DNA of 64,000 nt from an archaeon BMS3Abin17 (GCA_002897655.1 BDTJ01000038.1:1957-65956), one strand, 5' to 3'; shown: positions 1 to 52,206, counted from the first letter of the stretch. Program-made: numbers and translations. The notes: generated from the sequence alone by a model not told the origin.

Positions 1-2563
1 CTACATTTATGCTGATATTCCATTTCCCAGAACTGTTTGTATTAGTCCCGTCAAAACAGCTTATCCACCATTTATAATCTCCATCTGTCAAGGAGGTATT
101 TGCAGTAATTGTTGTTGAAGTTGCATTTAAGACACTTGCATTATTTCCGTAAGCAGTTGTATTTCCTGCACTATTGTTAAGCCATAAAGTACAATCCAAA
201 GTTGAAGCTTTTTCTTCAGTCACATTAAAAACAAAATCAGGAGAATTGTCTGTTGTGTTTAAAGTATTATTAGCAGGAAACTCCAATAAAACTATCGGAG
301 GGGAAATATCAGAGGCATCAATTGTAACTGTCCAATTTGCATCATTCCAATCTGATAATGAATTAACATCATAACAAAGGATGTTCCATTCATATGTCCC
401 ATCAGATATATTTGAAACATTAAAACTATTGTCGCCAGAAACTATATTTATAGAAGTTTGATTTAATAACCAAGTTCCGTTTATATTTGTGTACAAAGAA
501 CAATTTGCTATTCCTACATTGTCTGTTGCATTATAAACAAAAGTTATGTTTCCATCTGTATTGGTTGTTGCATTTGAAGGAGAAATTAAATTTACTATTG
601 GATTAGTTGTATCTGCTAAAATCGTGACAGTCTCGCTTGAAGTTTGTTCTGTATAGCCATTTTTAGTGCAAGTGATATTCCAATCATAGCTTCCTGCTAT
701 TGAAAATGTCTTGTTGACTTCCCATTTTCTCAAAGTATTATTCCATGTCATGTTATAAGAAGTTGTGTCATTAAAATTTGCAATGCAGGTTACAGATTGC
801 AAAATATGAGCATAGCCGTTTGCAGATGCCACTGCAATGTCATTTATTCCGTCATTGTTTATGTCAGAGATGTCTGTTGCTGGAGATGAACCATAATAAT
901 ACCCAATATATCCTAAACCAATAGTATACTCCCATAATAAGCTTCCTGATTTATTCAAAACATAAATTCTACTTCCTGCGCCAGCTATTATCTCATCAAA
1001 ACCATCATTATTCACATCTCCTATTGAAATTGACAGCACTGAACCAGAAGACAATGTAAAACTCCATAATTGACCAGAATTATTATTAAATCCTCTTAAA
1101 ATTCCTGAATCACCAACAATAACATCATCCTCCCATCCATCATTATCTAAATCTATGATAGTAGTTTCATAACCAAAACCAGTAGGCACTGTTGATTTCC
1201 AAATACAACCAGCAACTCCCCCATCACAAGTAAGACTCATTTGAGAACCCCATGTTCCATTCCAACTAAAAGCGAATAAATCTCCATATTCTCCAACAAT
1301 AATCTCGTCATTAAAGCCATCATGGTCTAAATCAACTGCCATTAATGCACGTGCATCTCCAAGATTAGAGGTATTAAAAATTAAAGTCCCATTGTCCCCG
1401 ACAAAAGCCATAAGATTTCCAGCCGAACCCCTCGTAACTCCGGCAACATCATCATCCCCATCCCGATCAAAATCCCCAACTGCAACTTCAAAAATCCTAT
1501 AACCAAAATTAGTTGAACCATTCCAAAAATTAGTCCAGGTTATTCCATCTGAAGTATTAAATGCAATGATTTTAGAACCACTCCCCACTACAAAATCATC
1601 TTTTATTCCATCATTATCCAAATCAGCAAGAACAACAGAATAAACATTCCCTAAATCACTGCTAGCCCATACTTGATCTCCAGTTTCATTAAACACCCTA
1701 ACATAACCAGCATCATCAGCAACAACAACCTCATTTTCATAACCATCATTGTCCAAATCTCCAACTTCAATTTCATATATATCGCTAGCAACACCAGTAT
1801 CTTGGGCAAATGAGGTTCCATTTGAATAATAAAAATATATCATGCCATAACCATTATCAGTTCCGACAGCAACACAATCTTTCTTCCCTTTGTTTTCACA
1901 ATCAAAATATGCAATTGACCAAGTTGAATCCTTATTATCCAAATCCCCTGTATTCCAAACAACCTGTCCAATTTCATAATTATTCAATCCAATGCCGGAA
2001 ACAGGCATCAAACTGCTTGTGTAATTAGCATAAAAATAAGTCTGCTCATTTACAACTTTCCCAGTATCATTTTCAATTGCTAAAGCCGTTGAATAAGAAC
2101 TAACATTAATTAAATCTGTAGTGCTCACATTTGCATAACTTAAATCATTAAAACAAGAAACATTCAAAGCATAAATTCCAATCGGCATTGTTGTTGTGTG
2201 GTTTGTGAGGTATTTTCCATCAGCAATTATTTCATACTGCAATGTCGAGGGATTAAAACTCATGTTAACAGCAGAAGTCCATAAACCTGTTTTATTGTGC
2301 CTGAACTCGCACCACACATTTGAACCATTAATGGAATTTCCAGAAGTTGCGTTTGTATAATTTGCGTAGATGACAGAATAATTCGCATAAACTATTTGTG
2401 AATCAGAATCATCCCAGACAGTTAAATTTGTCTCACCACTCTGCACACTCCCCAGACCAGTTACAAGAACTGTGTAAGCCAGACCAAAAAACAGCACACC
2501 AAGAATTAAAGTAAGACGCCAGAGGCCTTCGCCCCCCCCAGCTTTTTCGCCTGGCAAGTTCAT
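1..2563 (-). CDS. Secreted/anchored FG-GAP-like repeat (beta-propeller) surface protein with Ig-like C-terminal repeats; 3' end lies outside the window
   Basis: My own translation of the minus strand from the ATG at 2563 gives MNLPGEKAGGGEGLWRLTLILGVLFFGLAYTVLV, a signal/anchor segment. It is followed by many D-x-D-N-D-G-x-x-D/E calcium-binding FG-GAP-like motifs (DLDNDGYENEVVVADD, DLDNDGIKDDFVVGS, DFDRDGDDDVAGV, DLDHDGFNDEIIVGE, DLDNDGWEDDVIVGD, DVNNDGFDEIIAGA, DINNDGINDIAVAS) and many N-x-S/T sequons. The frame stays open to position 1. The supplied track does not list it because it runs off the window edge. Confidence 0.6.
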   Translation of the reverse strand, partial: MNLPGEKAGGGEGLWRLTLILGVLFFGLAYTVLVTGLGSVQSGETNLTVWDDSDSQIVYANYSVIYANYTNATSGNSINGSNVWCEFRHNKTGLWTSAVNMSFNPSTLQYEIIADGKYLTNHTTTMPIGIYALNVSCFNDLSYANVSTTDLINVSSYSTALAIENDTGKVVNEQTYFYANYTSSLMPVSGIGLNNYEIGQVVWNTGDLDNKDSTWSIAYFDCENKGKKDCVAVGTDNGYGMIYFYYSNGTSFAQDTGVASDIYEIEVGDLDNDGYENEVVVADDAGYVRVFNETGDQVWASSDLGNVYSVVLADLDNDGIKDDFVVGSGSKIIAFNTSDGITWTNFWNGSTNFGYRIFEVAVGDFDRDGDDDVAGVTRGSAGNLMAFVGDNGTLIFNTSNLGDARALMAVDLDHDGFNDEIIVGEYGDLFAFSWNGTWGSQMSLTCDGGVAGCIWKSTVPTGFGYETTIIDLDNDGWEDDVIVGDSGILRGFNNNSGQLWSFTLSSGSVLSISIGDVNNDGFDEIIAGAGSRIYVLNKSGSLLWEYTIGLGYIGYYYGSSPATDISDINNDGINDIAVASANGYAHILQSVTCIANFNDTTSYNMTWNNTLRKWEVNKTFSIAGSYDWNITCTKNGYTEQTSSETVTILADTTNPIVNLISPSNATTNTDGNITFVYNATDNVGIANCSLYTNINGTWLLNQTSINIVSGDNSFNVSNISDGTYEWNILCYDVNSLSDWNDANWTVTIDASDISPPIVLLEFPANNTLNTTDNSPDFVFNVTEEKASTLDCTLWLNNSAGNTTAYGNNASVLNATSTTITANTSLTDGDYKWWISCFDGTNTNSSGKWNISINV

Positions 2564-2616
2564 TTTAGAATGATTATACTGAATCAACAACAATTTATCC
2601 GTCCTCTTTTTATATA
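2426..2616. repeat. Direct repeat copy A (191 bp): promoter, 5' UTR and first ~40 codons of the FG-GAP surface protein gene
   Basis: Near-identical to 4703-4893 when read directly. It contains an 8-nt C run on the plus strand (poly-G on the coding strand). Confidence 0.75.
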
Positions 2617-2815
2617 ATAGAAATATGGGAAAAAGGATTTATATGTGTTTTGGATTTTGTAAGGAGACAAAATATTCTTCCGGTGAATTTTCTGCAAATA
2701 AAATAAATATTTTCAAAGATATCATCTAAGATTATAACGTTACTTAAATTATGTATAAAACAAACCATTCACCCTCTTACAATAATTATTTAAATGAGAG
2801 GTTTGTGATTAATTT

Positions 2816-3016
2816 ATGGAATCTATAAGTTTAGAAACAATACACAATGATTTGGAGTTGTTAAAAAAAGCTGTCGCAGAAATAAGAATTGCAGTAAACA
2901 TTGAACCGAAATTAAGAGAAGAAATTAAACAGCAGGTCAATGAAGCAAGAGAAAGAATCAAAAAAGGAGAGTTTGTCTCGAACGAAGAGATATTAAAAGA
3001 GTTCAATACAGCATGA
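2816..3016 (+). CDS. Putative antitoxin of a RelE/ParE-type TA pair
   Basis: 66-aa ORF overlapping the downstream toxin ORF by 4 nt; small charged helical protein. Confidence 0.45.
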   Translation: MESISLETIHNDLELLKKAVAEIRIAVNIEPKLREEIKQQVNEARERIKKGEFVSNEEILKEFNTA

Positions 3017-3288
3017 CCTATGAAATTATCTGGGATGAACAAGCGAGAAACTTTTTAAGAAAACTGGAAAAGAAAGAATCCCTAAGAATAATAAAAAAGA
3101 TTAATAGTATTGTTGAAAATCCAATGCATTTTTTAGAAACTCTTGTTGATATTAATAGTTATAAACTCAGAGTTGGTAATTATAGGGCACTAATTGATAT
3201 TGATAAAAAGAATAAATCTTTTAGCATTCTTTTTATAGGGCACAGGAAAAATATTTATAAGCATTTAAGAAACTTTAAAGACAAGTGA
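3013..3288 (+). CDS. RelE/ParE-family toxin
   Basis: 91 aa. The C-terminal segment YRALIDIDKKNKSFSILFIGHRKNIY is typical of RelE/ParE toxins. It is translationally coupled to the upstream small ORF. Confidence 0.6.
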   Translation: MTYEIIWDEQARNFLRKLEKKESLRIIKKINSIVENPMHFLETLVDINSYKLRVGNYRALIDIDKKNKSFSILFIGHRKNIYKHLRNFKDK

Positions 3289-3382
3289 ATCAATCCCTCT
3301 CGGCTTTTCCCCCGGGGAAATTCATTCTAAAATTATTATTCTGATTCAAAATCAATTTATCAACACACCTTTTATCATATTT

Positions 3383-4582
3383 TTATCCCTTTATTAATTC
3401 CCAGATATATTTTCCAGATTTTTTCCCTTTTAATCCGATTATTTCTCCCCTGCAATTATACTCTTTTGTAAAGGATTTTAAATTTCTTATATCAGAATTA
3501 TCAAAGTTATATTTAACTTCAATCCCGCAAATTTTATTTTTCCTCCCGATTAAAACAAAATCAACTTCTTGCTTATTCGTTGTCCTCCAAAATTTTATTT
3601 TTTCCCCTGATTTCATTAGCTCCAAAAAAACAAAAGTTTCAAATACATTTCCTAAGATTACTTTTGGGAATTCTTTAAACCAAAGTAAATTCATCATGCC
3701 TGTATCTAAAAAATATATCTTTGGATTTTTAGATAACTCGCTTCTTAAATTTTTATGAAAAGGGCTTATTCTTTTTATTATAAATGTATTCTCCAAAAGA
3801 TCAAGATATTCTGAAATAGTTTCCCTGTTTATATTAAGGGTGTTTGATAATTCCAGTATATTAAGAAGTTGCCCCGATTGCGATGCCAAAATCTCAATTA
3901 ATTTATTAAAAGAAGATATATTGCGGATATTTCCTATATCCCTTATATCTTTCCTTATATAGGTGTTAATTATCTGGGATAGATATGTTAGTTTTTTCTC
4001 TTCTAATCTCTCAAGAACTATTTTAGGATAACCGCCAAATTTTATATATTCTTCTGCCAGGATAATTAATTCATCATTTATTGCCTTAGTATTCTCAGTT
4101 TTTAATTGGTAATTTTTATTCTTAAAGATTAAAAACTCCTCAAAACTTAAAGGATAAAGCTCGAAATTAACTGTTCTTCCAACAAGACTTTCTTTAAATT
4201 TCTTTTTAATCTCAAATGTTGATGGTCCGGAAACAATTAATTTAACATTTTCATAATGATCATGCATTATCTTTAAAAAATTAGAGGGATTTTCCAGATA
4301 TTGTATTTCATCGATAATAAGGTAAATCTTTTTTTTATCATTAGCCCCTTTTTGGATAAGGTATTTATAAACACTTTCAGGACCCTCATTGCATAAATCT
4401 AATAAGTCTTTTAATTCCAAATCAAAATAAAAAGCATTTTCTTTTAAATGATTCTCAATTATATATTTTACAAGGGTTGTTTTACCGACCTGCCTAGAAC
4501 CATAAATGACTATCACTTCCCTTGATTTTAGATACTTTAGTATTTCATCTGTTATCTTTCTTTTGTATTTTCTATCTTTCAT
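3383..4582 (-). CDS. AAA+ ATPase of the DUF4143 (archaeal ATPase) family
   Basis: Walker A GSRQVGKTT near the N-terminus; 399 aa; overall organisation matches AAA/DUF4143 proteins. Confidence 0.65.
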   Translation of the reverse strand: MKDRKYKRKITDEILKYLKSREVIVIYGSRQVGKTTLVKYIIENHLKENAFYFDLELKDLLDLCNEGPESVYKYLIQKGANDKKKIYLIIDEIQYLENPSNFLKIMHDHYENVKLIVSGPSTFEIKKKFKESLVGRTVNFELYPLSFEEFLIFKNKNYQLKTENTKAINDELIILAEEYIKFGGYPKIVLERLEEKKLTYLSQIINTYIRKDIRDIGNIRNISSFNKLIEILASQSGQLLNILELSNTLNINRETISEYLDLLENTFIIKRISPFHKNLRSELSKNPKIYFLDTGMMNLLWFKEFPKVILGNVFETFVFLELMKSGEKIKFWRTTNKQEVDFVLIGRKNKICGIEVKYNFDNSDIRNLKSFTKEYNCRGEIIGLKGKKSGKYIWELIKG

Positions 4583-4702
4583 TTTAATATTAAATAATGC
4601 CCATAGATAGGGTAAATATTATTAGGTTATTTGTATACTATACTATGCACATTACTTTTTAAACCTTTCTTTTTCCTAGCTTTTCATTTCCTATATTGTA
4701 AG

Positions 4703-4893
4703 ATTTGTCTCACCACTCTGCACACTCCCCAGACCTGTTACAAGAACTGTGTAAGCCAGACCAAAAAACAGCACACCAAGAATTAAACTAAGACGCCAGA
4801 GGCCTTCGCCCCCCCCCATTTTTGGATGGGCAAGTTCATTTTATGAGTATTATACTGAATCAACAACAATTTTTCCACACCTCTTTTTATATG
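4703..4893. repeat. Direct repeat copy B (191 bp), a frameshifted duplicate of the surface-protein gene 5' end
   Basis: Same sequence as 2426-2616 but with 9 C instead of 8. On the minus strand it reads MNLPIQKWGG...* and stops after 19 codons. The -1 frame still encodes GEGLWRLSLILGVLFFGLAYTVLVTGLGSVQSGETNL. Confidence 0.75.
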
Positions 4894-4922
4894 ATATATT
4901 AAAGGAAAATTGTATTTATACT

Positions 4923-7730
4923 TCACTGTTTCGCTGATTTAAATGTTTTCCTTTTTTTATTCCTTTTTCTCAATAAAAGAATCACAATAGCAACTATAAA
5001 TGCCGGCACAAATACCTGGATAATAATCTTAAGTTTCTTTATTTCAAGATTCAAAAATTTTATTCTTTCCTTAATATTCTCGTCCTGGTTCTCACTTTCT
5101 TCATTTATTTCATTTTCAACAGCATTTCCTGTTATCTCTTGTTGTTTTGGTCTTGGAATTTCTTCATGAATTGTCTGAATTGTGATTTTTGCTTTTTTGT
5201 TTATAATGTTCTCTAATTTAACATATAGATTATAATAGCTCGGGGAAGTCAGATTCAATTTTGCACTCTGGCCTATTCCTAAAACTAATTTTATAATTGT
5301 GCTTTGAATAGTGATGTTAACAAAGTCTTTTCCAAGATAATTTAATGTTAGTGTGTGCGGTCTTGTTTTTTCATCGAAAAAAGTAAATGCAATTTTATCG
5401 TTTTTCTTCAGCTCTTTTGTGTATCCTGAAGAGATTTGTTCATTATTGAGTGTATATGTCTTAGATGCTGAAGTTCCCCCTCCGCCGCCAGTACTCTGTG
5501 CAACAACAGGGGGAGCACTCACAGTAAAAATTCTTTGACTTGAATTTTTCCTGTTGTTCGCTGAATCTGTGCAGTTCACAGACCAGTTATAATTTCCAGG
5601 GATAAATGTCTGGGTAAAATTTTGTGTTAAGGATAAATTTGTTACAGAAGAATTAGTCAGACTGATATTTTTATTTATAATCAAGCTACAGTTGGCAATA
5701 TTGAAATTATCTGTTATATTGTAGGTAAAAGTAATTTGCTGAGAATTAGAAGTGTAAGTAGCAGAATTACTTGGATTGATTAGCGTTATATTTGGTCTTG
5801 TTGCATCATAAGTTATGGTATAATTTGATTCAGCAAAACTATATTGGGATGCATTGTTATATGCCCTGCAATTCCAGAAATAAGATGTTTCGTCTGAGAG
5901 ATTATATTGAACAATTGTTGAATTAGAAGTTCCGGAAATGTTTTTTGTCAAATTATAAACCAGATTTTGTGAAGAATTCCAGACAAAAAATGTCAGATTA
6001 ATTAATTTAAAATTTGAAGATACCTCGGTTGAGCAGATGAGATTTGTTTGGTTTTGATTTGTGTGTGTGTTGTTTACAGGAGATTCCAAAGAAACACTTA
6101 TATTTGCAATATTAAAACTAAAATTCGCTTCAGCATATGCAGAGTTTCCATTACTATCAAAAGCAAAACAATTCCAGGTATAGCTATCTATAGAAAGCCC
6201 AATCACATTGAATGATGTTTCGCTGAATGAACTGGAAATTCCGGTGGTTGTTTGATTAATTAAATCAGAACTGGAATTCCATAAATAAAAAGTTATATTT
6301 GATAATTCAAGTGCATCAGTTGCATTGCAAATAAATGTCTGGTTTGTATTAAATGTTATAAAATTATCTGCAGGAGAAATTAAGTTTACATTGGGGGGGA
6401 TTTCATCAAAAGAAAGAACAGCAGAATAAATATCAATTCTTGAGAAATTTAATCCACTTCCTGAACTATCATCAATTAAAGCTCCGGTGTTATTCAGGGC
6501 ATTCTGAATTTCAGAAGGGGTTAAAACTCTACTGCTCTGTAATCTGTAAAATTGCCTGACTAATGCAAATGCTCCGGCAACATGGGGTGCTGCCATTGAG
6601 GTGCCTGATGCAACTGCATAAAGCCCTGAACATGCAATCTCAGAACAAATTGGAGCATTAAGATATTCTGTTGAATTTATATTTGAACCTGGAGCAAACA
6701 AATCTGTTATATTATTTCTATTTGAATAACTGGCTATATTATCACTTTTATCTGTTGCCCCGACAGCAGTTGCATTTTCAACACAAGCAGGAGAGGCAAT
6801 TTGAGTAGAAATTCCATTATTGCCTGTTGCAACTATAACTGAAATATTTTTTGCGACAGCAGAGTTAATAGACGGTGCCAGCGAATCATTATTGCAATAA
6901 TCATTGTATTGCCCTCCGCCCAAACTCATGCTTATTACAGAAATATTATAAATTGAAGAATTATCAACACACCAGTCTATAGCAGCCTGTATATCTGAGC
7001 TGAAACCACTGCCGCTTGAGTTTAATACTTTTATTGCTACTATGCCTGAACTTATTGCAACTCCTTTAATTCCTCCGCTTGCAGCAGCAATTCCTGCAAC
7101 ATGTGTTCCATGCCCATTATTATCTGCTGCATTGAAATTCTCTGATTGGTTATTAAGGCAGCAATATGTATCTTCTCCTTCTGTTGCAGAGCAATAGCAG
7201 TATTCTGCAACAACTCTTCCTTGCAGATCTGGATGAGTATTATTTATTCCAGTATCAATTACGCAGATTGCTTCATCAATCCCTGTTATGTTTATCCCAG
7301 AGATTTGTTTTGGCCAGAGTGTGCTGGCATTTATCAAAGGAACAGAATCCTGAAGAAAAGCTTTCATAACCCTATCTATTTTTATTGATTTAACATTAGG
7401 ATTGCCCCCTAACGCATTTAACTCCTTTTCAGAAACCTCAATAGCAATGCTTTCCTTAAAAATATGTTTTAAATTTTCTTCTTTAACCTGACTAATTATC
7501 TTATTTCTAATTTCCTCTTTTTCAGAATTTATTTCTGAGGGTGTTTTTTGAGTTTTAAAGAAAAAACCTTTTTCAGGAGCTGGCTCTTTTAATCCTACAA
7601 TAACCCTCACTTTCCCGTCCCCCAGATTTTTATAAACTTCTTCGCTGATTTTATTTGCCCTTGATGATGAACTGACAAATAAGATTAATGTTATTAAAAT
7701 TAGAAACCCAATTAAATATTTAATTTTCAT
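4923..7730 (-). CDS. Subtilisin-like serine protease (peptidase S8) with C-terminal repeat domains and a TM anchor
   Basis: Catalytic motifs DTGINNTHPDL, HGTHVAGIAA and GTSMAAPHVAG. Start chosen at the internal Met (MKIKYLIGFLILITLILFV signal peptide). C-terminal hydrophobic anchor plus a KRNKKRK tail; many N-glycosylation sequons. Confidence 0.85.
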   Translation of the reverse strand: MKIKYLIGFLILITLILFVSSSSRANKISEEVYKNLGDGKVRVIVGLKEPAPEKGFFFKTQKTPSEINSEKEEIRNKIISQVKEENLKHIFKESIAIEVSEKELNALGGNPNVKSIKIDRVMKAFLQDSVPLINASTLWPKQISGINITGIDEAICVIDTGINNTHPDLQGRVVAEYCYCSATEGEDTYCCLNNQSENFNAADNNGHGTHVAGIAAASGGIKGVAISSGIVAIKVLNSSGSGFSSDIQAAIDWCVDNSSIYNISVISMSLGGGQYNDYCNNDSLAPSINSAVAKNISVIVATGNNGISTQIASPACVENATAVGATDKSDNIASYSNRNNITDLFAPGSNINSTEYLNAPICSEIACSGLYAVASGTSMAAPHVAGAFALVRQFYRLQSSRVLTPSEIQNALNNTGALIDDSSGSGLNFSRIDIYSAVLSFDEIPPNVNLISPADNFITFNTNQTFICNATDALELSNITFYLWNSSSDLINQTTTGISSSFSETSFNVIGLSIDSYTWNCFAFDSNGNSAYAEANFSFNIANISVSLESPVNNTHTNQNQTNLICSTEVSSNFKLINLTFFVWNSSQNLVYNLTKNISGTSNSTIVQYNLSDETSYFWNCRAYNNASQYSFAESNYTITYDATRPNITLINPSNSATYTSNSQQITFTYNITDNFNIANCSLIINKNISLTNSSVTNLSLTQNFTQTFIPGNYNWSVNCTDSANNRKNSSQRIFTVSAPPVVAQSTGGGGGTSASKTYTLNNEQISSGYTKELKKNDKIAFTFFDEKTRPHTLTLNYLGKDFVNITIQSTIIKLVLGIGQSAKLNLTSPSYYNLYVKLENIINKKAKITIQTIHEEIPRPKQQEITGNAVENEINEESENQDENIKERIKFLNLEIKKLKIIIQVFVPAFIVAIVILLLRKRNKKRKTFKSAKQ

Positions 7731-8010
7731 TTGAAATAATCCCGCATTTTCCTCTAACACACCCGCAATAACCTGCACCACAATCTAACGGTCCTGCACA
7801 AACAGATGTACACATTATCTCCTTACAATAAGGAGCCTGTTTTTTTGGAACACAACTTTCAGGATGACAGCAAATTGCAGGAGCACATTCACTATTAGTT
7901 AGGCATCTCATAAGAGTATCTTGTTTATTTTGAGAGAGAAAATAAATCCCTCCAAAAATAACCAGTAATATAATAACTATCCAGAGGATTTTTTTGTGAT
8001 TAATTTTCAA
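7720..8010 (-). CDS. Small Cys-rich membrane-anchored protein
   Basis: 96 aa with an N-terminal TM helix and 14 Cys in an extracellular-like domain. Confidence 0.4.
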   Translation of the reverse strand: MKINHKKILWIVIILLVIFGGIYFLSQNKQDTLMRCLTNSECAPAICCHPESCVPKKQAPYCKEIMCTSVCAGPLDCGAGYCGCVRGKCGIISNEN

Positions 8011-11344: not shown

Positions 11345-12703
11345 ATGGGTATGTTTTACACATTCAGTCCCAAAACCCCAAATATAAATAAAAGAGTTGT
11401 TAGGATACAAATACCTACAAAAATATATAAAAAAATTAAGAATAATTTTGTTAAAATAAATGTAAATGGTACAGAGTTAATAGATAAAATAACTTCAGAA
11501 AAAAGATTTGTTATACCAAAAGAACAAAAAATTATATTTTCTAATCAAAATATTGTTAAAATTGAGATTATTAAAAATAAAAAGAGAAAGAAAAAATCTT
11601 TCATTGTAAATAAAAAAATAGATATTCTAAATTGGCTCCCAGAAAAAAATCGTGAAGAAGTTAAAATAAATATTATTGGCAACAAGGACAATCTAACTTG
11701 TTTTATTAAAAATTTTAAAGGGAGAGTAAGGCAAGTAATTATTAAGAAATATGTCCCACTAGAATTTTGTAGATTGCTTGGATACTATCAAGCAGAAGGG
11801 GGAAAAGAAAAAATAATAAAGAAACGTCGAGGAAGAGAAGTTGTGATTACCAATACCAATCTTGACCTAGTCAAAGATTTTATTTTCTTGAGTAAATATC
11901 TAATAGATGCTTCCAATTGGAATGCTGAAATAAAGTTAACAAAAAGAAACGAGTTAAAAGAAAAGTTTATTATAAAAGAGCTAATAAAATTAGGAGTTAA
12001 AAAAAATAAGATAAAAATAAGAAAAGAAAAAAAATTAAAAGATTTTAGTATAAGGTTATCTATATGCTCAACGCTTTTGTCGGATATAATATTGAATTTC
12101 ATGAATTGCATCAGAAAAAAACTAATAGAGAGAAGACCACTGGGAAAAAATTACAAGATAATGTATATTAATTTTATGCAGGGTCTATTTTCAGGGGATG
12201 GAAACTATAATACATTTAAAAATAAAGATGGGGGAACACATCACAGATTAATCTTTTATGAGGGAAATAAGAACTATGCAATAGATTATCAAAAGTTATT
12301 AAGGAACGAAGGAATTAAAAGCAATATTATAAAAATCAAAGATAAAAATCTGTATATCATAAGAACTACTTTGAATTGGGAACTTTTGTTACTCCTCAAG
12401 GAATTAAATTTATTTGATTATCATAAAAAACATAAAGAAGCTTTAGTAAGTTCAATTAAAAGTCATAAAAGATATAAAAGTAATAAATATTTAATAAAAT
12501 TAGGAGATAATTTTAACATTAAACAAATTTGTGAGGTAAGTAATAAAAGTAAAGTAATATGTTATAATTGGATTAAAAAAATGGTTAATAATAATTTAAT
12601 TGTTAAAAATAAAATAAATGACTGGTCATCCTCATTAGGGGGGAAGAGAATTAAAGGTATTTTAAAAAATCTTGAAAATAAAGGAACTAATCCATCTCAC
12701 TAA
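11345..12703 (+). CDS. Free-standing LAGLIDADG-type homing-endonuclease-like protein
   Basis: Two LAGLIDADG-like motifs: LLGYYQAEGG and GLFSGDGNY. 452 aa and extremely Lys-rich. Confidence 0.45.
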   Translation: MGMFYTFSPKTPNINKRVVRIQIPTKIYKKIKNNFVKINVNGTELIDKITSEKRFVIPKEQKIIFSNQNIVKIEIIKNKKRKKKSFIVNKKIDILNWLPEKNREEVKINIIGNKDNLTCFIKNFKGRVRQVIIKKYVPLEFCRLLGYYQAEGGKEKIIKKRRGREVVITNTNLDLVKDFIFLSKYLIDASNWNAEIKLTKRNELKEKFIIKELIKLGVKKNKIKIRKEKKLKDFSIRLSICSTLLSDIILNFMNCIRKKLIERRPLGKNYKIMYINFMQGLFSGDGNYNTFKNKDGGTHHRLIFYEGNKNYAIDYQKLLRNEGIKSNIIKIKDKNLYIIRTTLNWELLLLLKELNLFDYHKKHKEALVSSIKSHKRYKSNKYLIKLGDNFNIKQICEVSNKSKVICYNWIKKMVNNNLIVKNKINDWSSSLGGKRIKGILKNLENKGTNPSH

Positions 12704-13721
12704 TTAATTTTTTTAATTCAACAATTCTTTTTTGAGACATATACTTTCTAACTGGCTCAAGAACCTTGATTAAAGATTCTGCAACAGCATTTTTTAAATC
12801 AAAGGGATGCAACTTTCCGCTTTCATATTTTTTTTCTAAACCCCCGTAATCATTAAACTCCAAATCCTCCCCATACTTTCTATCTCTCTTTACTTTTAAT
12901 TTTCCTTTTCTTGGGAAGATAATAAACTGGCAAATCTGTAAAATTGGGTTATTCTTAATCTCCTTTTCAGGACAGAATGATTTATTTATTTTTTTTCTTA
13001 TTGATTCTGGCTCTTCATCAATCATAATTCTTGAATTTGGGATGCTGGAAGACATCTTTCCGCCATTTAAACCAACCATATCTCCATGATGTATTATTAT
13101 TGGTGCCTTATAATCTAAATCAGGTAAATTCTCCCTCATTAACATATGAATCTTTCTTTGAGGCATATCTCCAAAAGCAATATCTACTTTCAAATGTTTG
13201 GCATCTATGGTTTGCATTAAAGGGTATAACATTTGAGCAACATGCGGGTCTTTCTCTTCCCTAGCAATAACAGCCATTGCTCTTTTAGCTCTCAAACCCC
13301 TAACTTTTAAAGATAATTTTAATACATCTAAAAAATATTCATGCCCCAACTGAAACTCGCTTCCTAAAATATAATCTGCTTTCTTCATATCAACCCCTAA
13401 AGCAGCAAATCCTTCTTTATACAATTCAGCTATATGTTCCACTTTTGCAAGACTTCCTTTTTCATTCAAAAAAGAGTGTAAATCTGCACAAAGTAATTTT
13501 AATTTCAAACCAGCTTTTTGAAAATCAATATGTTTGTTTACTCCAATCATAGTCCCAATATGCAACCCTTCCCCAGAAGGCTCAAACCCATGATATACCA
13601 CAACATTTTTCTTCTCTTTAAGAATTTCTTTTAACTCTTCTTCCCCAATTATCTCCTGTGTATTCCTCTTGATTAATTTAATCTTCTCATCCACATTTAA
13701 GTTCTTCTTTCTCCAAAACAT
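12687..13721 (-). CDS. tyrS: Tyrosyl-tRNA synthetase (archaeal type)
   Basis: N-terminus VVVYHGFEPSGEGLHIGTMIG (HIGH-like motif). KMSSS motif (GGKMSSSIPNS), the archaeal TyrRS form of KMSKS. 344 aa. Confidence 0.85.
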   Translation of the reverse strand: MFWRKKNLNVDEKIKLIKRNTQEIIGEEELKEILKEKKNVVVYHGFEPSGEGLHIGTMIGVNKHIDFQKAGLKLKLLCADLHSFLNEKGSLAKVEHIAELYKEGFAALGVDMKKADYILGSEFQLGHEYFLDVLKLSLKVRGLRAKRAMAVIAREEKDPHVAQMLYPLMQTIDAKHLKVDIAFGDMPQRKIHMLMRENLPDLDYKAPIIIHHGDMVGLNGGKMSSSIPNSRIMIDEEPESIRKKINKSFCPEKEIKNNPILQICQFIIFPRKGKLKVKRDRKYGEDLEFNDYGGLEKKYESGKLHPFDLKNAVAESLIKVLEPVRKYMSQKRIVELKKLISEMD

Positions 13722-14139: not shown

Positions 14140-15024
14140 CTATTTTTCCTGAAAGGCCCTAACAATCACCCCAATCATCTCCTTAACATTAACACTCTCA
14201 TCTGACTTCAACATTGAAGATATCTCTTTTTCATTCAAATCTGAAAGTTTAGAATCTAAGTTTTTAATAAAATCAAAGAGCTCTTTTCTTGTAAATTTCT
14301 CCTTAGAACTTTCATTTATTTTAGCAAGGATTAAATCAATTAGGACCTTGTCAATCTTAGCAATCTTATTCTTTAAAATAAAGTAAATGTCATATATATC
14401 CCTTATAGCAATGTTCTTTCTTACTAAAAGAGCTCTGAACTTTTCTGCAAGATTTTCGGTTAAATCAATTACTTCAATCTCAATATCTTTTTCTAAAATT
14501 GGCTGGCCCAGGGCATCAATAAATTCATGTTTGATTGTTTTCCTTTTTGTAGGTTTTCTCAACTTCTTTCTAAAAGAAATTTCTAATTTAATTGTCTGAA
14601 CAGAATTGTCAATTATAGAATTATATTTTGTTATAATCTCAAGTCCAACTATTCTGGGTTTAAATTTAGAAGTTAACATTTTCCAGCCTTTTCCTAACTC
14701 TTTGCTTGTTTCAAGTCCTAACTTATCTAAAATCTCAATTAACTCTCTTCTCAGTTTATCTAATATCATTTTTATTTGTCTTTTAGACATCTCTTTTGTA
14801 TCTTTATTATAAACAAAATCTAAATCCTCACTTAGTCTGTAAAATCCAAGATAACATTTATTCAAACATGTGCCTCCTTTAAAAACCAAATCTTTAATTC
14901 TCTTCTTTGATATTTTATGAAGAATTTTAGTTAAATGATAATCTTTCTCTAATAATCTGTCTGAAAATTTAAGTTTCTCAGCAAGATCCACAATTAGTTT
15001 TTTTAAATCAATCTTATTTTCCAT
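14140..15024 (-). CDS. AbiEii/DUF1814 nucleotidyltransferase toxin (type IV TA / abortive infection)
   Basis: Motif FKGGTCLNKCYLGFYRLSEDLDF matches the GGTAL...RFSEDLDF signature of AbiEii. Confidence 0.75.
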   Translation of the reverse strand: MENKIDLKKLIVDLAEKLKFSDRLLEKDYHLTKILHKISKKRIKDLVFKGGTCLNKCYLGFYRLSEDLDFVYNKDTKEMSKRQIKMILDKLRRELIEILDKLGLETSKELGKGWKMLTSKFKPRIVGLEIITKYNSIIDNSVQTIKLEISFRKKLRKPTKRKTIKHEFIDALGQPILEKDIEIEVIDLTENLAEKFRALLVRKNIAIRDIYDIYFILKNKIAKIDKVLIDLILAKINESSKEKFTRKELFDFIKNLDSKLSDLNEKEISSMLKSDESVNVKEMIGVIVRAFQEK

Positions 15025-15755
15025 TTTTTATCCAATAGTTTAGTTCTTGTTTTTTTGATTGTGGTATAATAAGACAATGCCTTTTTCTTTTTTAATAAAC
15101 TTAACAATTTATTGCTGTTAGTCAATAAACCAACAAGTTTTATTATTTTAATACTATCATACTTAATTGCATAATCAATTAACTTTGTTTTATCATATTT
15201 TACTTCCTTAATTCTATCCAAAACTTCACTCAAACCTCCAAGATATTCAGGATATTCAAGAACATCTATTATTGTTCTCTCTCTATCAGAATAAGGATAT
15301 TTATATTTCCTTAAAATTCCAAATAATTTATTCTTTTTAACTTTGAAAAATTTGTATTGATAGTGCAGGATTTTTTTATCAGCAGAATATTTAGTATTAA
15401 AGACAAACAGTTTATTAGGAATCTGTTCTGTAAATCCATGCAAATTAAACGCATTATACAAACCAACATAATACTCATCGGATTCTAAAAAATACTCATT
15501 CAACTCAAACTCATCTATTCCAACAGTTTTATCAACAGAACTAACAGGAACTACAATATAATATCCTCTCTTAAAAAAAACAAGCCTCTTTTTCTGCAGC
15601 ATTGACTTAATAAGATATTTAGGATTTTTTGATATTTTATATTTAGAGATCAAACTAATTAAATCATTTCTTTTAATTATCTTATATTTCTTATATTCTA
15701 AGATACCTTGTAACCTTCCTTGATTAGGGGTTAAGCTCAAATCCTTTGTTTTCAT
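15003..15755 (-). CDS. AbiEi-like antitoxin/transcriptional regulator
   Basis: 250-aa ORF immediately upstream of, and overlapping, AbiEii; the size and position fit AbiEi. Confidence 0.5.
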   Translation of the reverse strand: MKTKDLSLTPNQGRLQGILEYKKYKIIKRNDLISLISKYKISKNPKYLIKSMLQKKRLVFFKRGYYIVVPVSSVDKTVGIDEFELNEYFLESDEYYVGLYNAFNLHGFTEQIPNKLFVFNTKYSADKKILHYQYKFFKVKKNKLFGILRKYKYPYSDRERTIIDVLEYPEYLGGLSEVLDRIKEVKYDKTKLIDYAIKYDSIKIIKLVGLLTNSNKLLSLLKKKKALSYYTTIKKTRTKLLDKKWKIRLI

Positions 15756-21401: not shown

Positions 21402-24400
21402 CTAAACCCACTTATCCAAGCCCTCTTGCTTTTCTGATTCCCTTCCAAAAATGCTATCAATATATCTTTTTGTTAATTCTAAATTCTGTCTCATGTATTT
21501 AGAGAGATTATACTTCTTAGCAAGGTCTAATGCAGGCTCTAGATATTTTCTTATTCCTCCCTCGTGGATTGTAAAAATTATTTTTCCCTTGCATTTAGGG
21601 CAAACCCCTGTTAAGGGAGGCCTTCTTAATATTTCATTGCATCCAACACATCTAAACTCCTGCATGGAAAATTTCCTCAAATTACCTTTCATATCTTTTA
21701 TAAAATGTCTTTCAATAATCAATCTTACAGTATCTGAAGTATCTGCTGCACGGACTCTTTCAACAAAACCCATCTGGTGCTGGACTTTTTCCTGCATTGT
21801 TGCAAGCAATTTGTAAGAAGAGCAAACAACCCCCTCATTAAAATCAGATGTATCATGAGTAAACCCAAAACCAGTAAAAGGATTTTTTTCTTGTTTCAAG
21901 ATTTGCCTAACATTATTTATTTTTACTTCAGAAGAATGTTTTCTTTGCTCAGCAAGCCTGTAAAGCTCAAGAGGATATTCATTTACAAACTCAAAATCAA
22001 GTATCTGGTCATCAACCTCTCCTGCATCAATCTTTGCATTTAGAACAAGAGGAGCATCCTGTGTTCCTCCCCTATGACTTGGCAAAAATTTTCTGGAAAA
22101 ATTTAACAGAACATCTCCCAAAAGCATGAGTGCAGCCTCGTCTCCATCACAATTATGAACAAGAATCTCATTGGCAAAAAAATTATGCTCTTCATCCACA
22201 TTAAAGCAATAGCTTTCCCTTTCCCCTAATTCTTCAATTTTCATAATTCTCGGATAAGCATAATTTTCATCGAAATCAATTCTCATTCCTCTTGGACTTT
22301 TCTGAATAAGCTCTGCTAAAATGCTCTTTTTCCTCTCTGAAATAAATCCTATCTGTTCAAACTTTTTGACAAAATTAGAAGGGATTGTTATCTTAGTTAT
22401 TTTAAATTTAGGAATTTCTCTGTTTTTCTTTATATAAAATTCACTAACTCTGTATCCTGGTTCTTTCTCATATTCATAAAATTTTGTAAAAATTCCAAAT
22501 CTTGATAAAACAAAACTTAAATCATGTTTTAATCCCTCGCTTACTGTATCACAGACCACCCTTGTATCACTTAAACTCACGCTTCCATCACCCTCAAAAT
22601 AACCTCTTAGCAATGCAGATAATTTCTCTTTATCTAAATCTAAAAATAAACTAGGAATTCTCTTATTTTTTGCGCCACTACTTAATCCAAGATAATCCTT
22701 AAATATTTCGTAAACAATCCTTGATGAAAAAGTTAAATGATCCTCATGGTTTTCGCTAGGTATTAAATTAAAATGAGATTTGAAAACATCCTTAATCAAT
22801 TCCTGAACTTCATTATTTGTGGCAGCAATAGAAACCTGATAAAAGCCTTTTTGAGAATTATTTTCTCTGATAAACCCTTCAGCAACGTATAATCCTAAAA
22901 CTTCCAACAATTTTTTATCAAAAGAAATTCTAATTGGAAGAGGAACATTATCTCTTTTAATAACTATTTTAACACTATTAGGTAAATCTTTCAATGTTTT
23001 TCCATATTTATTTAAAAATTCTTCGACAAAAATGATAGGAAAACTATCTCTCTGCCAAAAATTGTCATTTTTATTCAATCTCTCAAAAGAACCTAAATAA
23101 TCCTTGATATTTCTAAGCATTATATCTTTTCGTCCTCTAAAAATGTCTGGTAAAAAAATGTCTTTAATATCCTTTTCCTGAATATTTTTCTTGTAACCAA
23201 CCATTAATTTGTCTCCTTCCTGCAGTTGAAAGGCTCTTTTTTCTTTTTTCCCTTTAAGATATACTTTATGATTTTCAGTTAAATCTATCTGCCTCCCATC
23301 TTCTGAATAAATTTTAAGTAATTTTGTGGGAGTGTGTTTGGTTATCTCTTTTATTTTTTTCTCTCCAGGATTGCTCCATGTAGAAATACCAGATATATTC
23401 TTCTTTAAAGTCCCAAAATTATCTGCCTTCTCCTCGGGATTTGCCTCGTCAATAAATTTTCCTATTTTTTCAATGCTCCATCTTCCATCTTTATTAATAG
23501 AAACATAATTACCATATCCTAAACAATCCCTCCTAATTGCTGCATGCATAAAAGGGCTTGCAAATAATCCAAGAGTGTTTGAGAATCCAATAAATCTGCA
23601 GATAACTCCTGCACAATTATGAGGGGCCATACAAACACCTAACTGTCCAACTAAATCTTCTCTTTTTCTAATATTGTAGTATGGTTTTAATCCATAAAAC
23701 TTTACAAGCAGATCGTCCACAAAAGTAGCAACTCTCATAAACACATCATCTGCTTTTTCGTCAGGAGATTTATTAGAACAGGGCAATATAACATCATGAG
23801 GCATTAATTCCATTATTTGCTCGTCATTGACAAGAGGTTTTCCGTGTATGTCTTCTTCATATCCTAACTCTTTAAGCTTCTCAATACTGACAGAAATCTC
23901 TTTTGGCTTAAAAGACGTTAAAGGTAATTCAGTTGCATCAAATCTTATTGTCCCGTCTTTATTAACCTGCAGCCCATACATGGCTCTTAAAACTCCTTTT
24001 GCAAGAGATTCCACTTTATGCTCTGCTGACGAAGTTCCCCGGATTCCCTTAATCAAAAGAGGGATTTCTGTTTTATCAAGCCCAAGTTTTTCAATAGCTT
24101 TTTCAAGATAATGACCAATCCCTAAATCCTGTGCGCAATAAGTTTGCACTCTTTTGTGCTCCTCGCAGGGTTTTGAGGATTTTTCCCTGCACTCAAAACA
24201 ATAATACCCTCCTTCAGATTTATTCCCACAATTCTCACAGATCGGATAAATAGTATCTTTTTTGCACTTGCTGCAATAATAAATAGGAAAAGAGCTTTTT
24301 ACACTCCCAACTTCACAGGCAGTCTGAACACTTCTTAATCTTCCTCCCTCATTACCTACTGGAAACAAAACATTCGGGCTTCCTGCTAATTTTCTTACTT

Positions 24401-26234
24401 TTGCCTTTTCAGGCCTTCCCATCCTTGCTCCGATAAAATCCCCTGCCTTGTCCTTTATCTTAAATTCAGAAACAGAGTTGATTATTTCTAAAATCGGTTT
24501 ATCTGATTTGAATCTTTCTTCATCAATATGCTCTTTTAATATATTATTTTTATCAACTAAATTAAAATCAACCCCAAGATTTGCAAGCAAGGCCTTGCTG
24601 TTTTCCCTGCTTATCACAACATTCTCAATTGTTACTTCATGTTCTACCCCTAATAATTCAAGTGCTCTTTTTCCCCTCTTAAATTTCTCTTGCTCAGTCT
24701 GATTAAAAGGGAAGATAATTTTATTATCTGTTTTTGAATGTTTTAGCCAGTCTAATAATCCTAAAACCTGTTCTTTTGAAATCTCTGTCCAATAAAATAT
24801 AAATTTTGGGTGAAGAGGAATCTTATATTTCCTGCTTATTTCAACAGCTTTCTCAAAAGAAACCTCATAAAAATTAATTTCTTTTTCTAGTTCAGGATTT
24901 TTCTCCCGAAGTTCCAGACCCCACCACTCCTCTACATAACCTGGTTTTATCAAATCAGAATTCCTGTTGCTCAGGTCGCTAAAAGGAAATAAAATATCTC
25001 CAAGGTAAATTATCTCTTCAACATCTGGATAAAGTTTTTTTGCTTCTTCCATGCTTTCAAGTTTCTTAACACTTCCATTAAACAACTTTATTATAGGGCC
25101 ATCAATAAGGTCGCAGGTAGTTACAGCACAGCCTTTTGTGGGTTTTTCTAACTTTAATTGTGTCCCAATTGCAATAAAACCATCTGTCATTGCCATGGTG
25201 GCAGGATGTATTGACGCCGCACTAAATCCACTTACCCTTCCTCTCCCATATCTAAACCTAAATCCCCCTGATCTTGAAGGATGCCCAAAAATAGGTCTTC
25301 CGGCAACTAAATCCTTTATATAAGTTGGAGAATCATCTGTATCTCCTAAATCTCTTTTTTCATGCAATTTAATATATTCTTCTAAAAAATCAAAACCTGT
25401 TGAATTTATTCCTTTTTTCTTTGCCCGGGCCAATAACCTAAACCCTTTTGCTGCTTTTTGCGCAAGCCCTTCTGAAAAAATAAGGCACATCCCCCCTCTT
25501 ATATTATTTGTTTCAACTCTGCCTAAATTTTTATAATTAGAAACTTCTAATTTTTCAGTTTGCTCTCCAGAAATTTGGATAGGGAGATTTTTAGCTAAAA
25601 AATACATTTCCTCTTCAGTGGGAAAATACTGAAGATTAGTTATCCTCTCATGATAATCTGTATTTTCAGCAATATATCTTTTAATTTCTTCTTCACTAGG
25701 GTCATATTTTGCAAACCCAAAGGATTCTCTAAGGTAATCAATCAGCATCAATACAACACAACTTGCAGTAGTTCCTGCAGAACGAATTGGTCCTGAAAAA
25801 TAAGCTATAAAATACTCCTTTCCTTCCCTTGTTTTTCCAAGTTTTAGTTCAGTAAACCCCTCTATAGGAGAAGAGACAACCCCCAGAGTAGTATATGCAA
25901 AACCAACTCTTATTCCTGCTTCAATTGATTCCAACAAACTGGCAAACTTACAGAATTTTTGTTTTGATACTTCTTCTGCAATCTTAAAGGAAACCATAAT
26001 ATCCAACTTCCCATACTCTTTTTCAAGCTCAAGAATTCTTTCTGCAATTTTAGAGCCCTGCATTTGAGGATATAGTGTTGAAATTAACCCCACAACTTTT
26101 TCAGCCATTGTCATTGCAAGTGGAATCTCTACTTTATCCACAGGGTCTAATCCTTGTTTCCTCGCTTCCTCACAAACAGCATAGACACTCTTAACCTGTT
26201 TCTCAAGATCTTTGAAATATTTTTTGGGGTTCAT
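21402..26234 (-). CDS. polC: DNA polymerase II (PolD) large subunit DP2, containing an intein
   Basis: 1610 aa. The two-barrel DP2 regions are conserved, with Cys-cluster Zn fingers (CSKCKK...CENCG, CVGCNE...CPKC). Without the intein the extein is about 1152 aa. Confidence 0.9.
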   Translation of the reverse strand: MNPKKYFKDLEKQVKSVYAVCEEARKQGLDPVDKVEIPLAMTMAEKVVGLISTLYPQMQGSKIAERILELEKEYGKLDIMVSFKIAEEVSKQKFCKFASLLESIEAGIRVGFAYTTLGVVSSPIEGFTELKLGKTREGKEYFIAYFSGPIRSAGTTASCVVLMLIDYLRESFGFAKYDPSEEEIKRYIAENTDYHERITNLQYFPTEEEMYFLAKNLPIQISGEQTEKLEVSNYKNLGRVETNNIRGGMCLIFSEGLAQKAAKGFRLLARAKKKGINSTGFDFLEEYIKLHEKRDLGDTDDSPTYIKDLVAGRPIFGHPSRSGGFRFRYGRGRVSGFSAASIHPATMAMTDGFIAIGTQLKLEKPTKGCAVTTCDLIDGPIIKLFNGSVKKLESMEEAKKLYPDVEEIIYLGDILFPFSDLSNRNSDLIKPGYVEEWWGLELREKNPELEKEINFYEVSFEKAVEISRKYKIPLHPKFIFYWTEISKEQVLGLLDWLKHSKTDNKIIFPFNQTEQEKFKRGKRALELLGVEHEVTIENVVISRENSKALLANLGVDFNLVDKNNILKEHIDEERFKSDKPILEIINSVSEFKIKDKAGDFIGARMGRPEKAKVRKLAGSPNVLFPVGNEGGRLRSVQTACEVGSVKSSFPIYYCSKCKKDTIYPICENCGNKSEGGYYCFECREKSSKPCEEHKRVQTYCAQDLGIGHYLEKAIEKLGLDKTEIPLLIKGIRGTSSAEHKVESLAKGVLRAMYGLQVNKDGTIRFDATELPLTSFKPKEISVSIEKLKELGYEEDIHGKPLVNDEQIMELMPHDVILPCSNKSPDEKADDVFMRVATFVDDLLVKFYGLKPYYNIRKREDLVGQLGVCMAPHNCAGVICRFIGFSNTLGLFASPFMHAAIRRDCLGYGNYVSINKDGRWSIEKIGKFIDEANPEEKADNFGTLKKNISGISTWSNPGEKKIKEITKHTPTKLLKIYSEDGRQIDLTENHKVYLKGKKEKRAFQLQEGDKLMVGYKKNIQEKDIKDIFLPDIFRGRKDIMLRNIKDYLGSFERLNKNDNFWQRDSFPIIFVEEFLNKYGKTLKDLPNSVKIVIKRDNVPLPIRISFDKKLLEVLGLYVAEGFIRENNSQKGFYQVSIAATNNEVQELIKDVFKSHFNLIPSENHEDHLTFSSRIVYEIFKDYLGLSSGAKNKRIPSLFLDLDKEKLSALLRGYFEGDGSVSLSDTRVVCDTVSEGLKHDLSFVLSRFGIFTKFYEYEKEPGYRVSEFYIKKNREIPKFKITKITIPSNFVKKFEQIGFISERKKSILAELIQKSPRGMRIDFDENYAYPRIMKIEELGERESYCFNVDEEHNFFANEILVHNCDGDEAALMLLGDVLLNFSRKFLPSHRGGTQDAPLVLNAKIDAGEVDDQILDFEFVNEYPLELYRLAEQRKHSSEVKINNVRQILKQEKNPFTGFGFTHDTSDFNEGVVCSSYKLLATMQEKVQHQMGFVERVRAADTSDTVRLIIERHFIKDMKGNLRKFSMQEFRCVGCNEILRRPPLTGVCPKCKGKIIFTIHEGGIRKYLEPALDLAKKYNLSKYMRQNLELTKRYIDSIFGRESEKQEGLDKWV
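22152..23525 (-). mobile_element. Intein (458 aa) with a LAGLIDADG homing-endonuclease domain inside DP2
   Basis: The insert starts with Cys after ...FMHAAIRRD and ends ...ILVHN followed by CDGDEAA. Internal LAGLIDADG motifs LLEVLGLYVAEGFI and LLRGYFEGDGSV. Junction codons were checked on the nucleotide sequence. Confidence 0.85.
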
Positions 26235-52205: not shown

Positions 52206-52206
52206 C

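Follow-up and report, generated by a model that had tools for sequence, protein, structure and literature searches.

In the archaeon BMS3Abin17, two gene cassettes stand upstream of a giant FG-GAP surface-protein gene, one with a candidate defence ATPase and the other with a predicted toxin-antitoxin (TA) pair, and three direct copies of the promoter and 5' end of the surface-protein gene delimit them. This block was analyzed in a stretch of 64,000 nucleotides (GCA_002897655.1, BDTJ01000038.1:1957-65956), called the window throughout. No integrase, transposase or reverse-transcriptase (RT) domain was found in the approximately 75 open reading frames (ORFs) of the window that were scanned; the repeat copies diverge in an allele-like manner, the same design recurs at two further loci, and a metagenomic contig holds the block in permuted order. 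With a probability of roughly one half, we explain the block as a small non-autonomous insertion of two cassettes, driven by homology and accompanied by a long duplication of the target promoter and 5' end. The window is archaeal and codes for PolD DP2 with an intein, DP1 and Orc1/Cdc6; its G+C content is about 30%, the host is a Pacearchaeota-like DPANN archaeon, and the block is chromosomal.

All coordinates refer to the + strand, and the genes of the locus, the TA pair excepted, lie on the minus strand (Table 1). Read in descending order, the locus consists of the S8 protease gene, copy B of the repeat, the upstream region of the ATPase gene, the ATPase gene itself, copy C, the TA pair, a spacer, copy A and the FG-GAP gene. 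The latter continues beyond the window, its product exceeds 1508 aa in another contig (L001), and inspection reveals an N-terminal hydrophobic helix. Homology between copies A and B extends over about 232 nt, from 2 nt past the S8 stop codon to after codon 46 of the surface-protein gene. Their local alignment reaches z=127 (z values for repeats give the alignment score against shuffles), and blastn aligns 2423-2619 with 4699-4896 at 91% identity over 200 columns. An initial annotation, made from the sequence alone, had reported this direct repeat, had described a cassette bracketed by a duplicated promoter and signal-peptide segment, and had taken copy A for the true 5' end of the FG-GAP gene; on these points our results agree with it, and the block looks foreign. 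Its statement that the copies differ only by 9 versus 8 G and one substitution is incorrect: the alignment contains 13 mismatches and 5 gap positions, clustered in the promoter and between the ATG and the poly-G run. Both the third copy, C, and a 42-codon ORF in copy B are absent from that account.

The divergence between A and B is uneven. Codons 12-46 differ at 2 of 106 positions (98% identical), whereas 25 of 32 columns are identical from the ATG through the end of the G-run and 67 of 83 in the promoter, i.e. the 80 nt upstream (2/106 versus 23/115, Fisher p=1e-5); the pattern points to a recent recombination or gene conversion in codons 12-46. Copy A, with eight G, reads MNLPGEKAGGGEGLW. 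Copy B has nine G and yet is one base shorter in net terms; the frame from its first ATG does terminate early, as previously annotated, in this case after 18 codons, but the net -1 frameshift arises beside the run and not simply from an extra G. An internal ATG of copy B, fused to the run (AAAATGGGGGGGGGC), opens the 42-codon ORF (4691-4819), which is in frame with the signal-peptide helix. Of the promoter, copy C retains about 50 nt, followed by the ATG and 11 codons (74-76% identical; z=19 against A, z=14 against B). Together with the hybrid copy J on the permuted contig described below, the stretch of 21 nt after the ATG exists in four versions, encoding NLPGEKA, NLLREKA, NFPGGKA and, frameshifted, NLPIQKW. 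The changes among the post-ATG codons of A, J and C are largely synonymous or conservative (AAC/AAT, TTG/CTT/TTC, GCT/GCA/GCC). The copies look like diverged alleles rather than decayed fresh duplicates, because such patterns come from divergence as functional genes before juxtaposition and are less expected when a duplicate decays in place.

Between the copies lie the RelE/ParE pair and the DUF4143 ATPase that had been annotated there. Pfam and PADLOC searches gave no match for the 66-aa putative antitoxin; its stop codon and the toxin start share 4 nt (ATGA), and the two genes conform to a predicted type II TA pair of the ParE/RelE superfamily. The ATPase matches the PADLOC model PDC-S01 over its full length (E 2.6e-87; residues 6-376 on positions 2-357 of 375) and is thus a candidate defence ATPase, the defence role being a candidate annotation. 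It has more than 3000 homologues, many of them 70-85% identical, in metagenome-assembled genomes (MAGs) of Pace-, Nano- and Diapherotrites-type DPANN archaea, and the ATPase itself is also annotated in a Pacearchaeota MAG; on plasmids, the search for the ATPase gave only homologues of less than 33% identity, all bacterial. By inspection, the ATPase upstream regions of the window, L036 and L037 have a common ACAAATAAC.TAA motif. The adjoining S8 protease is 100% identical to a protein of archaeon BMS3Abin17; its best other relatives come from Woese-, Pace- and Nanoarchaeota MAGs and are 54-63% identical. Across DPANN archaea, the cassette ATPase is therefore kept far closer (70-85%) than this neighbouring backbone gene (at best 60-63%), which fits a horizontal spread of the ATPase. 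Copy C sits in the 94-nt intergenic region between the convergent ATPase and ParE genes (3289-3382), and the flank of copy B contains nothing homologous to the spacer next to copy A.

Table 1. Features of the cassette block and of two loci of the same design in the window.
Feature	Position	Strand	Remarks
Giant FG-GAP/Ig-like surface-protein gene, 5' 854 codons	1-2563	-	ATG 2563-2561; Pfam FG-GAP, FG-GAP_3, Big_7
Copy A, live promoter and 5' end	2412-2643	-	upstream 2564-2643; ATG 2561-2563
Copy A, subparts	2426-2560	-	variable 21 nt 2540-2560; poly-G (C8 on +) 2532-2539; codons 12-46 at 2426-2531
Unique spacer, 172 nt	2644-2815		presumed TA-operon promoter, divergent from copy A; promoter role from position only
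Putative antitoxin, 66 aa	2816-3016	+	role suggested by place upstream of ParE
ParE/RelE-family toxin, 91 aa	3013-3288	+	PF05016, E 2e-7, 31.8 bits (cutoff 23)
Copy C, older degraded copy	3295-3375	-	promoter; ATG 3323-3325; 11 codons (MNFPGGKAERD*)
AAA_14 + DUF4143 ATPase, 399 aa	3383-4582	-	Pfam; PADLOC PDC-S01
Upstream region of the ATPase cassette, 106 nt	4583-4688	-	partly conserved upstream of the L036 and L037 homologues
Copy B, displaced stub	4689-4920	-	promoter; ATG 4837-4839; variable stretch 4818-4836
Copy B, subparts	4703-4817	-	poly-G (C9 on +) 4809-4817; codons 12-46 at 4703-4808
S8 subtilase with C-terminal anchor	4923-7781	-	conserved backbone gene upstream of the locus; Pfam
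Third example: Fic gene (59353-60300), bracketed	59228-60466	-	live nuclease 3' end 60395-60466; displaced 42-codon 3' stub 59228-59356
Second example: 43-nt promoter + ATGG, three copies	61573-63292	-	63250-63292, 62542-62584, 61573-61615; z=15-22

A contig from ERZ1742238 (NODE_34086, 2017 nt; L020) carries the block in circularly permuted order, i.e. ATPase 5' part, hybrid repeat J, TA pair, copy C and ATPase 3' part. Its ATPase 5' end together with the upstream region (318 nt) is 100% identical to window 4385-4702; beyond J, the sequence runs through the TA spacer, the TA genes and copy C into the 3' part of the ATPase gene, as far as position 3941. Over about 1300 nt, the contig departs from the window twice, by one gap next to the boundary of the repeat and by the substitution T3465G, and the variant 3465G is also present in a contig from another sample (L021). 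J combines an A-type promoter and a G8 run with both B-type diagnostic bases in codons 12-46, and its 21 nt between the ATG and the poly-G run, matching neither A nor B, represent the fourth version (MNLLREKA, in frame). If A and B recombined, the resulting circle or tandem duplication would be expected to have just this junction. The excision by repeat recombination that the initial annotation had predicted is thus plausible; the copies are not the near-identical ones that it had described. Untrimmed Illumina P5 and P7 adapter sequence occupies both ends of the contig (1-83 and 1918-2017), from which it follows that the ERZ1742238 assembly was built from untrimmed reads.

As had been noted earlier, the pattern recurs elsewhere in the window, and we find two loci of the same design at 59.2-63.3 kb. 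At the first, three copies of a 43-nt promoter segment precede a 102-aa/DUF2283 pair, a 64-aa ORF followed by a DUF7557/ParE pair, and a PD-(D/E)XK nuclease gene, respectively. At the second, it is a 3' end that is duplicated: the final 72 nt of the nuclease gene, stop codon included, recur after the Fic gene, and both copies end exactly at a stop codon. Along its entire length, the stub at this locus can be matched to the nuclease C-terminus (52% aa identity, E 2e-9); the gaps preserve the reading frame and no stop codon interrupts it, again a divergence of the allele-like kind. The 64-aa ORF (62351-62545) was considered as a further nuclease remnant, and the BLASTP comparison is not significant. 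A separate observation concerns a G-rich direct repeat of 43 nt (84% identical) at 40265-40307 and 49330-49372, whose copies adjoin a ParE gene (39671-39958) and the HsdM stop codon. The enclosed segment of about 9 kb holds genes for RecQ, RadC, a PRiA4_ORF3-like protein, a Schlafen/AlbA_2-HATPase protein and an M48-like peptidase, and may be a further inserted block.

According to the reading that we favour, cassette one, with the ATPase, and cassette two, with the ParE-type TA pair, would have been inserted at the promoter and 5' end of the hypervariable surface-protein gene. Each insertion would leave behind a displaced gene start, i.e. the stub B (about 232 nt, frameshifted when read from its first ATG) and the relic C, which is older and measures about 81 nt, and the downstream copy A would drive the intact gene. 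The cassettes would enter through homology-dependent recombination of the host, needing neither transposase nor integrase. One possible route is a Campbell-type integration of a circular cassette bearing its own version of the gene start; another is one-sided, homology-facilitated illegitimate recombination. Copies A and B may still recombine and produce a circular or tandemly duplicated unit of 2277 bp, and the TA pair would oppose the loss of the block.

Several points weigh against this insertion model. It must assume homologous integration across repeats as short as 43 nt that are 79-93% identical. The 21-nt stretch of J resembles neither A nor B, so that L020 is no simple A x B product of this strain; furthermore, the contig has a coverage of only 1.9 and adapter-capped ends, and the assembly may have reached the ATPase flank by a chimeric path across 84 identical bases, even though the unique segment of J must derive from real reads. 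The alleles without the cassette that had been suggested previously were not found: every assembly retrieved through the S8, ATPase, ParE and nuclease look-ups has the same arrangement, and no assembly among those fetched lacks the cassette. All assemblies are identical over the cassette, i.e. turnover is not seen in this population. When genome contigs were scanned with the S8 protease for an empty site, a single relative came up, its contig being truncated within the S8 gene; two scans of metagenome contigs and one viral scan gave nothing, and the N-terminus of the FG-GAP protein has just four distant homologues, none of them syntenic. In the relatives (S8 54-63% aa identity), the gene order is S8, Rpp14, a variable region, proteasome alpha, SBDS and exosome, and the FG-GAP gene is lacking. 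With no empty-site genome and the nearest relatives devoid of the target gene, we can only infer the direction and mode of the event. In one MAG whose S8 protease is 58% identical (L009, 11197-12309), a 130-aa ORF and a DUF2283/MJ0788 TA pair lie between Rpp14 and proteasome alpha; hence, other lineages also show variability downstream of the S8 gene.

The same arrangement occurs in at least six other assemblies (ERZ1742235, ERZ1742237, GCA_011050875.1, GCA_011041355.1, DRR093003/4/5 and SRR7787891), those compared having been made with SPAdes, MEGAHIT and Logan. An apparent second strain (L001/L002) is 100% identical to window 2171-7125, and strains that are identical across the whole cassette region are no independent witnesses of its history. 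Below about position 2170, the body of the FG-GAP gene falls to 82% identity (window 1-2170 versus L001 4959-6672); this sharp breakpoint suggests allele swapping or diversifying recombination of a hypervariable surface protein. The break lends weight to a serious rival of the insertion model, namely that the repeats are static scars: B and C would be leftovers of earlier alleles or tandem paralogues, overwritten by an incoming allele and its neighbouring cassettes, with a homologous crossover within the hypervariable gene at one end and an illegitimate join at the other. The block would then not be mobile at all, and stubs that diverge like alleles as well as a cassette that is present and identical in every assembly are what such serial overwriting would leave. 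On the other hand, extra steps are needed to place 98% identity in codons 12-46 beside a promoter of about 80%, to make the ends of A and B co-extensive and to produce the permuted L020, and arrays of up to eight repeat-cassette units elsewhere are hard to obtain in this way. All in all, we regard serial overwriting as possible, though rather improbable.

These arrays contain homologues of the cassette ATPase (P0132, 78% identical) and lie on contigs L026-L035. In one of them (L026, 1-8993; JGI 3300025669), two MNT/HepT pairs, a PDC-S01-like ATPase, Bro-N, two HicBA pairs, NYN and MazE/ParE are combined. Across L026-L035, each cassette stands behind a direct repeat of 100-205 nt, present in 7-8 copies that are 85-100% identical and end in ATGGAA at the start codon; the cassette content varies by sample, and two contigs (L032, L034) have a permuted order. 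A direct repeat of 21 nt (95% identical; about 30 nt with one gap) brackets another ATPase homologue (L036, 85% aa identity). A further ATPase cassette (L037, 83%) abuts the 3' end of a membrane-protein gene and appears to have taken the place of the original 3' end; in L037 (3-745), the membrane-protein ORF reads on into the conserved upstream region and promoter of the ATPase cassette. Folding of the L026-L035 array repeats revealed no hairpin structure, and no sequence kinship was found between the L026 or L036 repeats and those of the window. The motif CCCGACAAT, common to the repeats of L036 and of the window at 40241, gave one hit and was dismissed as chance, as 11 of 100 shuffles are as good.

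The arrays raise the question of a site-specific, integron-like system, in which promoter-to-start-codon repeats would serve as sites for a recombinase whose gene lies elsewhere, and cassettes would pile up one behind the other at a single site. At two window loci, two cassettes are bounded by three direct copies, homologous ATPase cassettes stand in arrays of 7-8 repeats with contents that vary by sample, and boundaries fall on a stop codon, a start codon or the poly-G run, all of which would suit such a system. Yet repeats of different loci and organisms have no common sequence, which speaks against one site-specific enzyme and for a homology-dependent or target-duplicating mechanism; the duplicated lengths range from 30 to 232 nt, and neither a recombinase gene in the 64 kb nor a hairpin or R''/R' motif is found. 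We therefore hold this explanation to be unlikely. A broader and rather doubtful idea is that DPANN archaea own an integron-like, attC- and IntI-independent form of gene capture, with promoter-to-start-codon repeats (including the TATA-box) as recombination sites. If so, each TA or defence cassette would arrive with or behind a ready promoter, and arrays would accrete up to eight units, as in L026; the array studied here would have used the surface-protein promoter and signal-peptide start as its site and the poly-G run as a preferred breakpoint.

Established classes of mobile elements were also considered and rejected for the block. No above-threshold match to Phage_integrase/IntI was obtained in ORFs of at least 80 aa in the window, the scope of our domain scans; a partial Phage_int_SAM_5 match in a 475-aa ORF (46881-48308) remains below the cut-off (21.2 versus 22.3 bits). 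Sites of the attC type are defined by an imperfect hairpin R''/L''-L'/R' (RYYYAAC...GTTRRRY). Folding of A, B and C on both strands gave z values of -1.0 to +0.3, i.e. no hairpin beyond shuffled controls, and no GTTRRRY was seen in the copies by inspection. An integron cassette or a cluster of attC sites lacking integron-integrases (CALIN) is thus rejected for want of an attC fold and of IntI in the window, and an integrative element with att sites and a surrogate gene end for want of a linked recombinase in cassette or window. For an insertion sequence or transposon, there is no transposase domain, the inverted repeats are weak and at chance level, and a duplication of about 232 nt is too long for a target-site duplication. 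A diversity-generating retroelement with template and variable repeats would require an RT domain, which is absent, and the mismatches between A and B as well as between nuclease and stub are of all types, not confined to adenine. Likewise, a hairpin with compensatory changes between ATG and poly-G was discarded: its stems of 4-5 bp are not kept in J, and the folding is not significant.

The poly-G tract itself does differ by one base between A and B, as initially annotated. It lies at codons 9-11 of the FG-GAP gene, where a one-base change would shift the frame, and encodes Gly-Gly-Gly in the n-region of the signal peptide. Its rarity in DNA of 30% G+C was also recognized correctly in so far as the window contains three G/C runs of at least 8 against about 0.07 expected, some 40-fold over expectation; however, one of them falls in an unrelated non-surface ORF. 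This second C8/G8 run (54234-54241) encodes VAGGEV in an unannotated ORF of 225 aa (53779-54456, minus strand), so that G8 runs are not limited to the start of the surface protein. The consensus of copy A is G8 in seven assemblies (window, L001, L002, L003, L004/L019, L018, L015/L022), and that of copy B is G9 in six (window, L001, L002, L003, L015/L022, L023). In three MEGAHIT k127 contigs from two samples, the sequence breaks off directly behind the eighth C of copy B (L004 and L019 being one contig), with B-private bases within the 127 nt before these ends; this suggests a branch, caused by C8/C9 heterogeneity or a J-type molecule, and a coverage drop at the homopolymer is also possible. 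Three boundaries meet at the poly-G run, namely the right end of the copy C homology, the switch from A to B in J, and the jump in A/B identity. The run is thus a likely recombination breakpoint.

Homopolymer contingency loci with poly-G/C tracts are familiar from Neisseria, Haemophilus and Campylobacter, and the G8 run in the first codons of a surface-protein gene resembles them. In contrast to those loci, the live copy shows no length polymorphism and the host is an archaeon; we know of no established homopolymer contingency locus in archaea. By analogy, slippage of G8 at codons 9-11 would toggle FG-GAP expression, with copy B as a spare start, a proposal that is compatible with the other readings. 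The excess of long G/C runs, the position of the tract, its 8-versus-9 difference between paralogous copies and the contig ends after the eighth C, which would fit length heterogeneity, all lend themselves to it. Phase-variable contingency loci have a 5' homopolymer of at least about 7, as here, and a tract-length polymorphism, which is not found at the level of assembly consensus: the live gene has G8 in 7 of 7 assemblies and also in J, and the stub has G9 in 6 of 6. Moreover, the 8-versus-9 difference is tangled with nearby substitutions and a deletion, another G8 run lies in an ordinary ORF, and the contig stops are explained equally by a J-type molecule or a homopolymer coverage drop. The slipped-strand switch proposed earlier is therefore unsupported, and we think it quite improbable that the protein is phase-variable.

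That the duplication is a collapsed or mis-joined repeat, an artefact of assembly, is hardly credible: several contigs do break at repeats, but A and B each have private differences, and contigs of different assemblers and samples, including L001 (8.6 kb), L002 and L015/L022 (17.6 kb, coverage 44), run unbroken from S8 through B, ATPase, C, TA and A into FG-GAP.

The closest described analogue of the proposed cassette insertion is the insertion with long target duplication reported for bacterial restriction-modification genes (Nobusato et al. 2000; Furuta, Abe & Kobayashi 2010, PMC2853133). In the cycle that the authors of the latter study put forward, insertion is followed by amplification by way of the repeats and then by release; no archaeal case passed their screen (PMC2853133). 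With its 2277-bp unit (<20 kb), direct repeats of about 232 nt (>30 bp) and no mobility domain, the block agrees with their description of such inserts in size, repeat length and gene content. Their criteria also call for a related genome in which a single, uninterrupted copy of the target aligns to both repeats, and the closest relatives with an S8 gene lack the FG-GAP gene. In both systems, a few kb of defence-type genes lacking a mobility gene are flanked by direct repeats of variable length (>30 bp) that duplicate the target, and the duplication often overlaps the end of a neighbouring gene. In contrast, the known repeats are usually more than 90% identical and were checked against an empty site, which was not found here. 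The cargo also differs, being a TA pair and a candidate defence ATPase, or a Fic gene, and the repeats are allele-like segments of promoter and start (or 3' end) with a nested third copy.

Sequential displacement arrays, i.e. the orphan modules at effector/immunity loci of the type VI secretion system, Rhs loci and loci of contact-dependent inhibition, offer a second comparison (Kirchberger et al. 2017, PMC5361080). In the arrays as far as outlined in that source, a new module enters via a conserved gene segment, and the old segment is pushed aside as a stub in direct orientation, much as proposed here. They shift 3' toxin tips and immunity genes of one family, whereas in our case the promoter and 5' end form the conserved segment and the cargo is unrelated to the target gene. 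Archaeal CALINs have been described as TA- and defence-rich arrays of small cassettes with similar repeats between them, in Nanoarchaeota and other DPANN archaea (Ghaly et al. 2022, PMC9668308). Unlike these, the block has no IntI, attC hairpins or R''/R' motifs that we could find; its repeats are promoters that end at the start codon of the next gene, and the TA cassette is inverted. Tandem accretion of cis-mobilizable elements and integrative and conjugative elements at one att site depends on a site-specific tyrosine or serine recombinase and a conserved core. The likeness lies in the three direct copies that bound two adjacent, integrase-free inserts, each with a surrogate end of the target gene, but neither recombinase nor conserved core is evident at our locus.

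How TA and defence genes move in genomes with almost no transposases or integrases, such as those of DPANN archaea, is largely unknown, and the locus provides a concrete, testable model, accompanied by two sister loci in the window and arrays in relatives. In this model, host recombination together with long duplications of promoters or gene ends would mobilise cassettes, and the TA pair would lock the block in. It would also account for the fragmentation of metagenome assemblies at such regions. Cassette traffic would be tied to a hypervariable surface-protein gene that probably serves contact with a host or virus.

Further features of the window concern other mobile or defence-related genes. 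A LAGLIDADG domain lies in the intein of the PolD large subunit (21402-26234), and there is an overlap between a free-standing gene for a LAGLIDADG protein of 452 aa (11345-12703) and the end of the gene for a class I (Trp/Tyr) tRNA synthetase (12687-13721). At 14140-15755, an AbiEii toxin gene and, behind it, a weak match to an AbiEi-like antitoxin form a type IV TA pair. The genes of the type I restriction system do not lie together (49374-57451): HsdM (49374-50828) and HsdS (51048-52205) stand apart from HsdR (54680-57451), with helix-turn-helix, PIN-domain and unknown ORFs between HsdS and HsdR; GmrSD, Fic and the Cas4-like PD-(D/E)XK nuclease come after. Type I HsdR, GmrSD, Fic, the PD-(D/E)XK nuclease and ParE make up a defence island at 54-64 kb.

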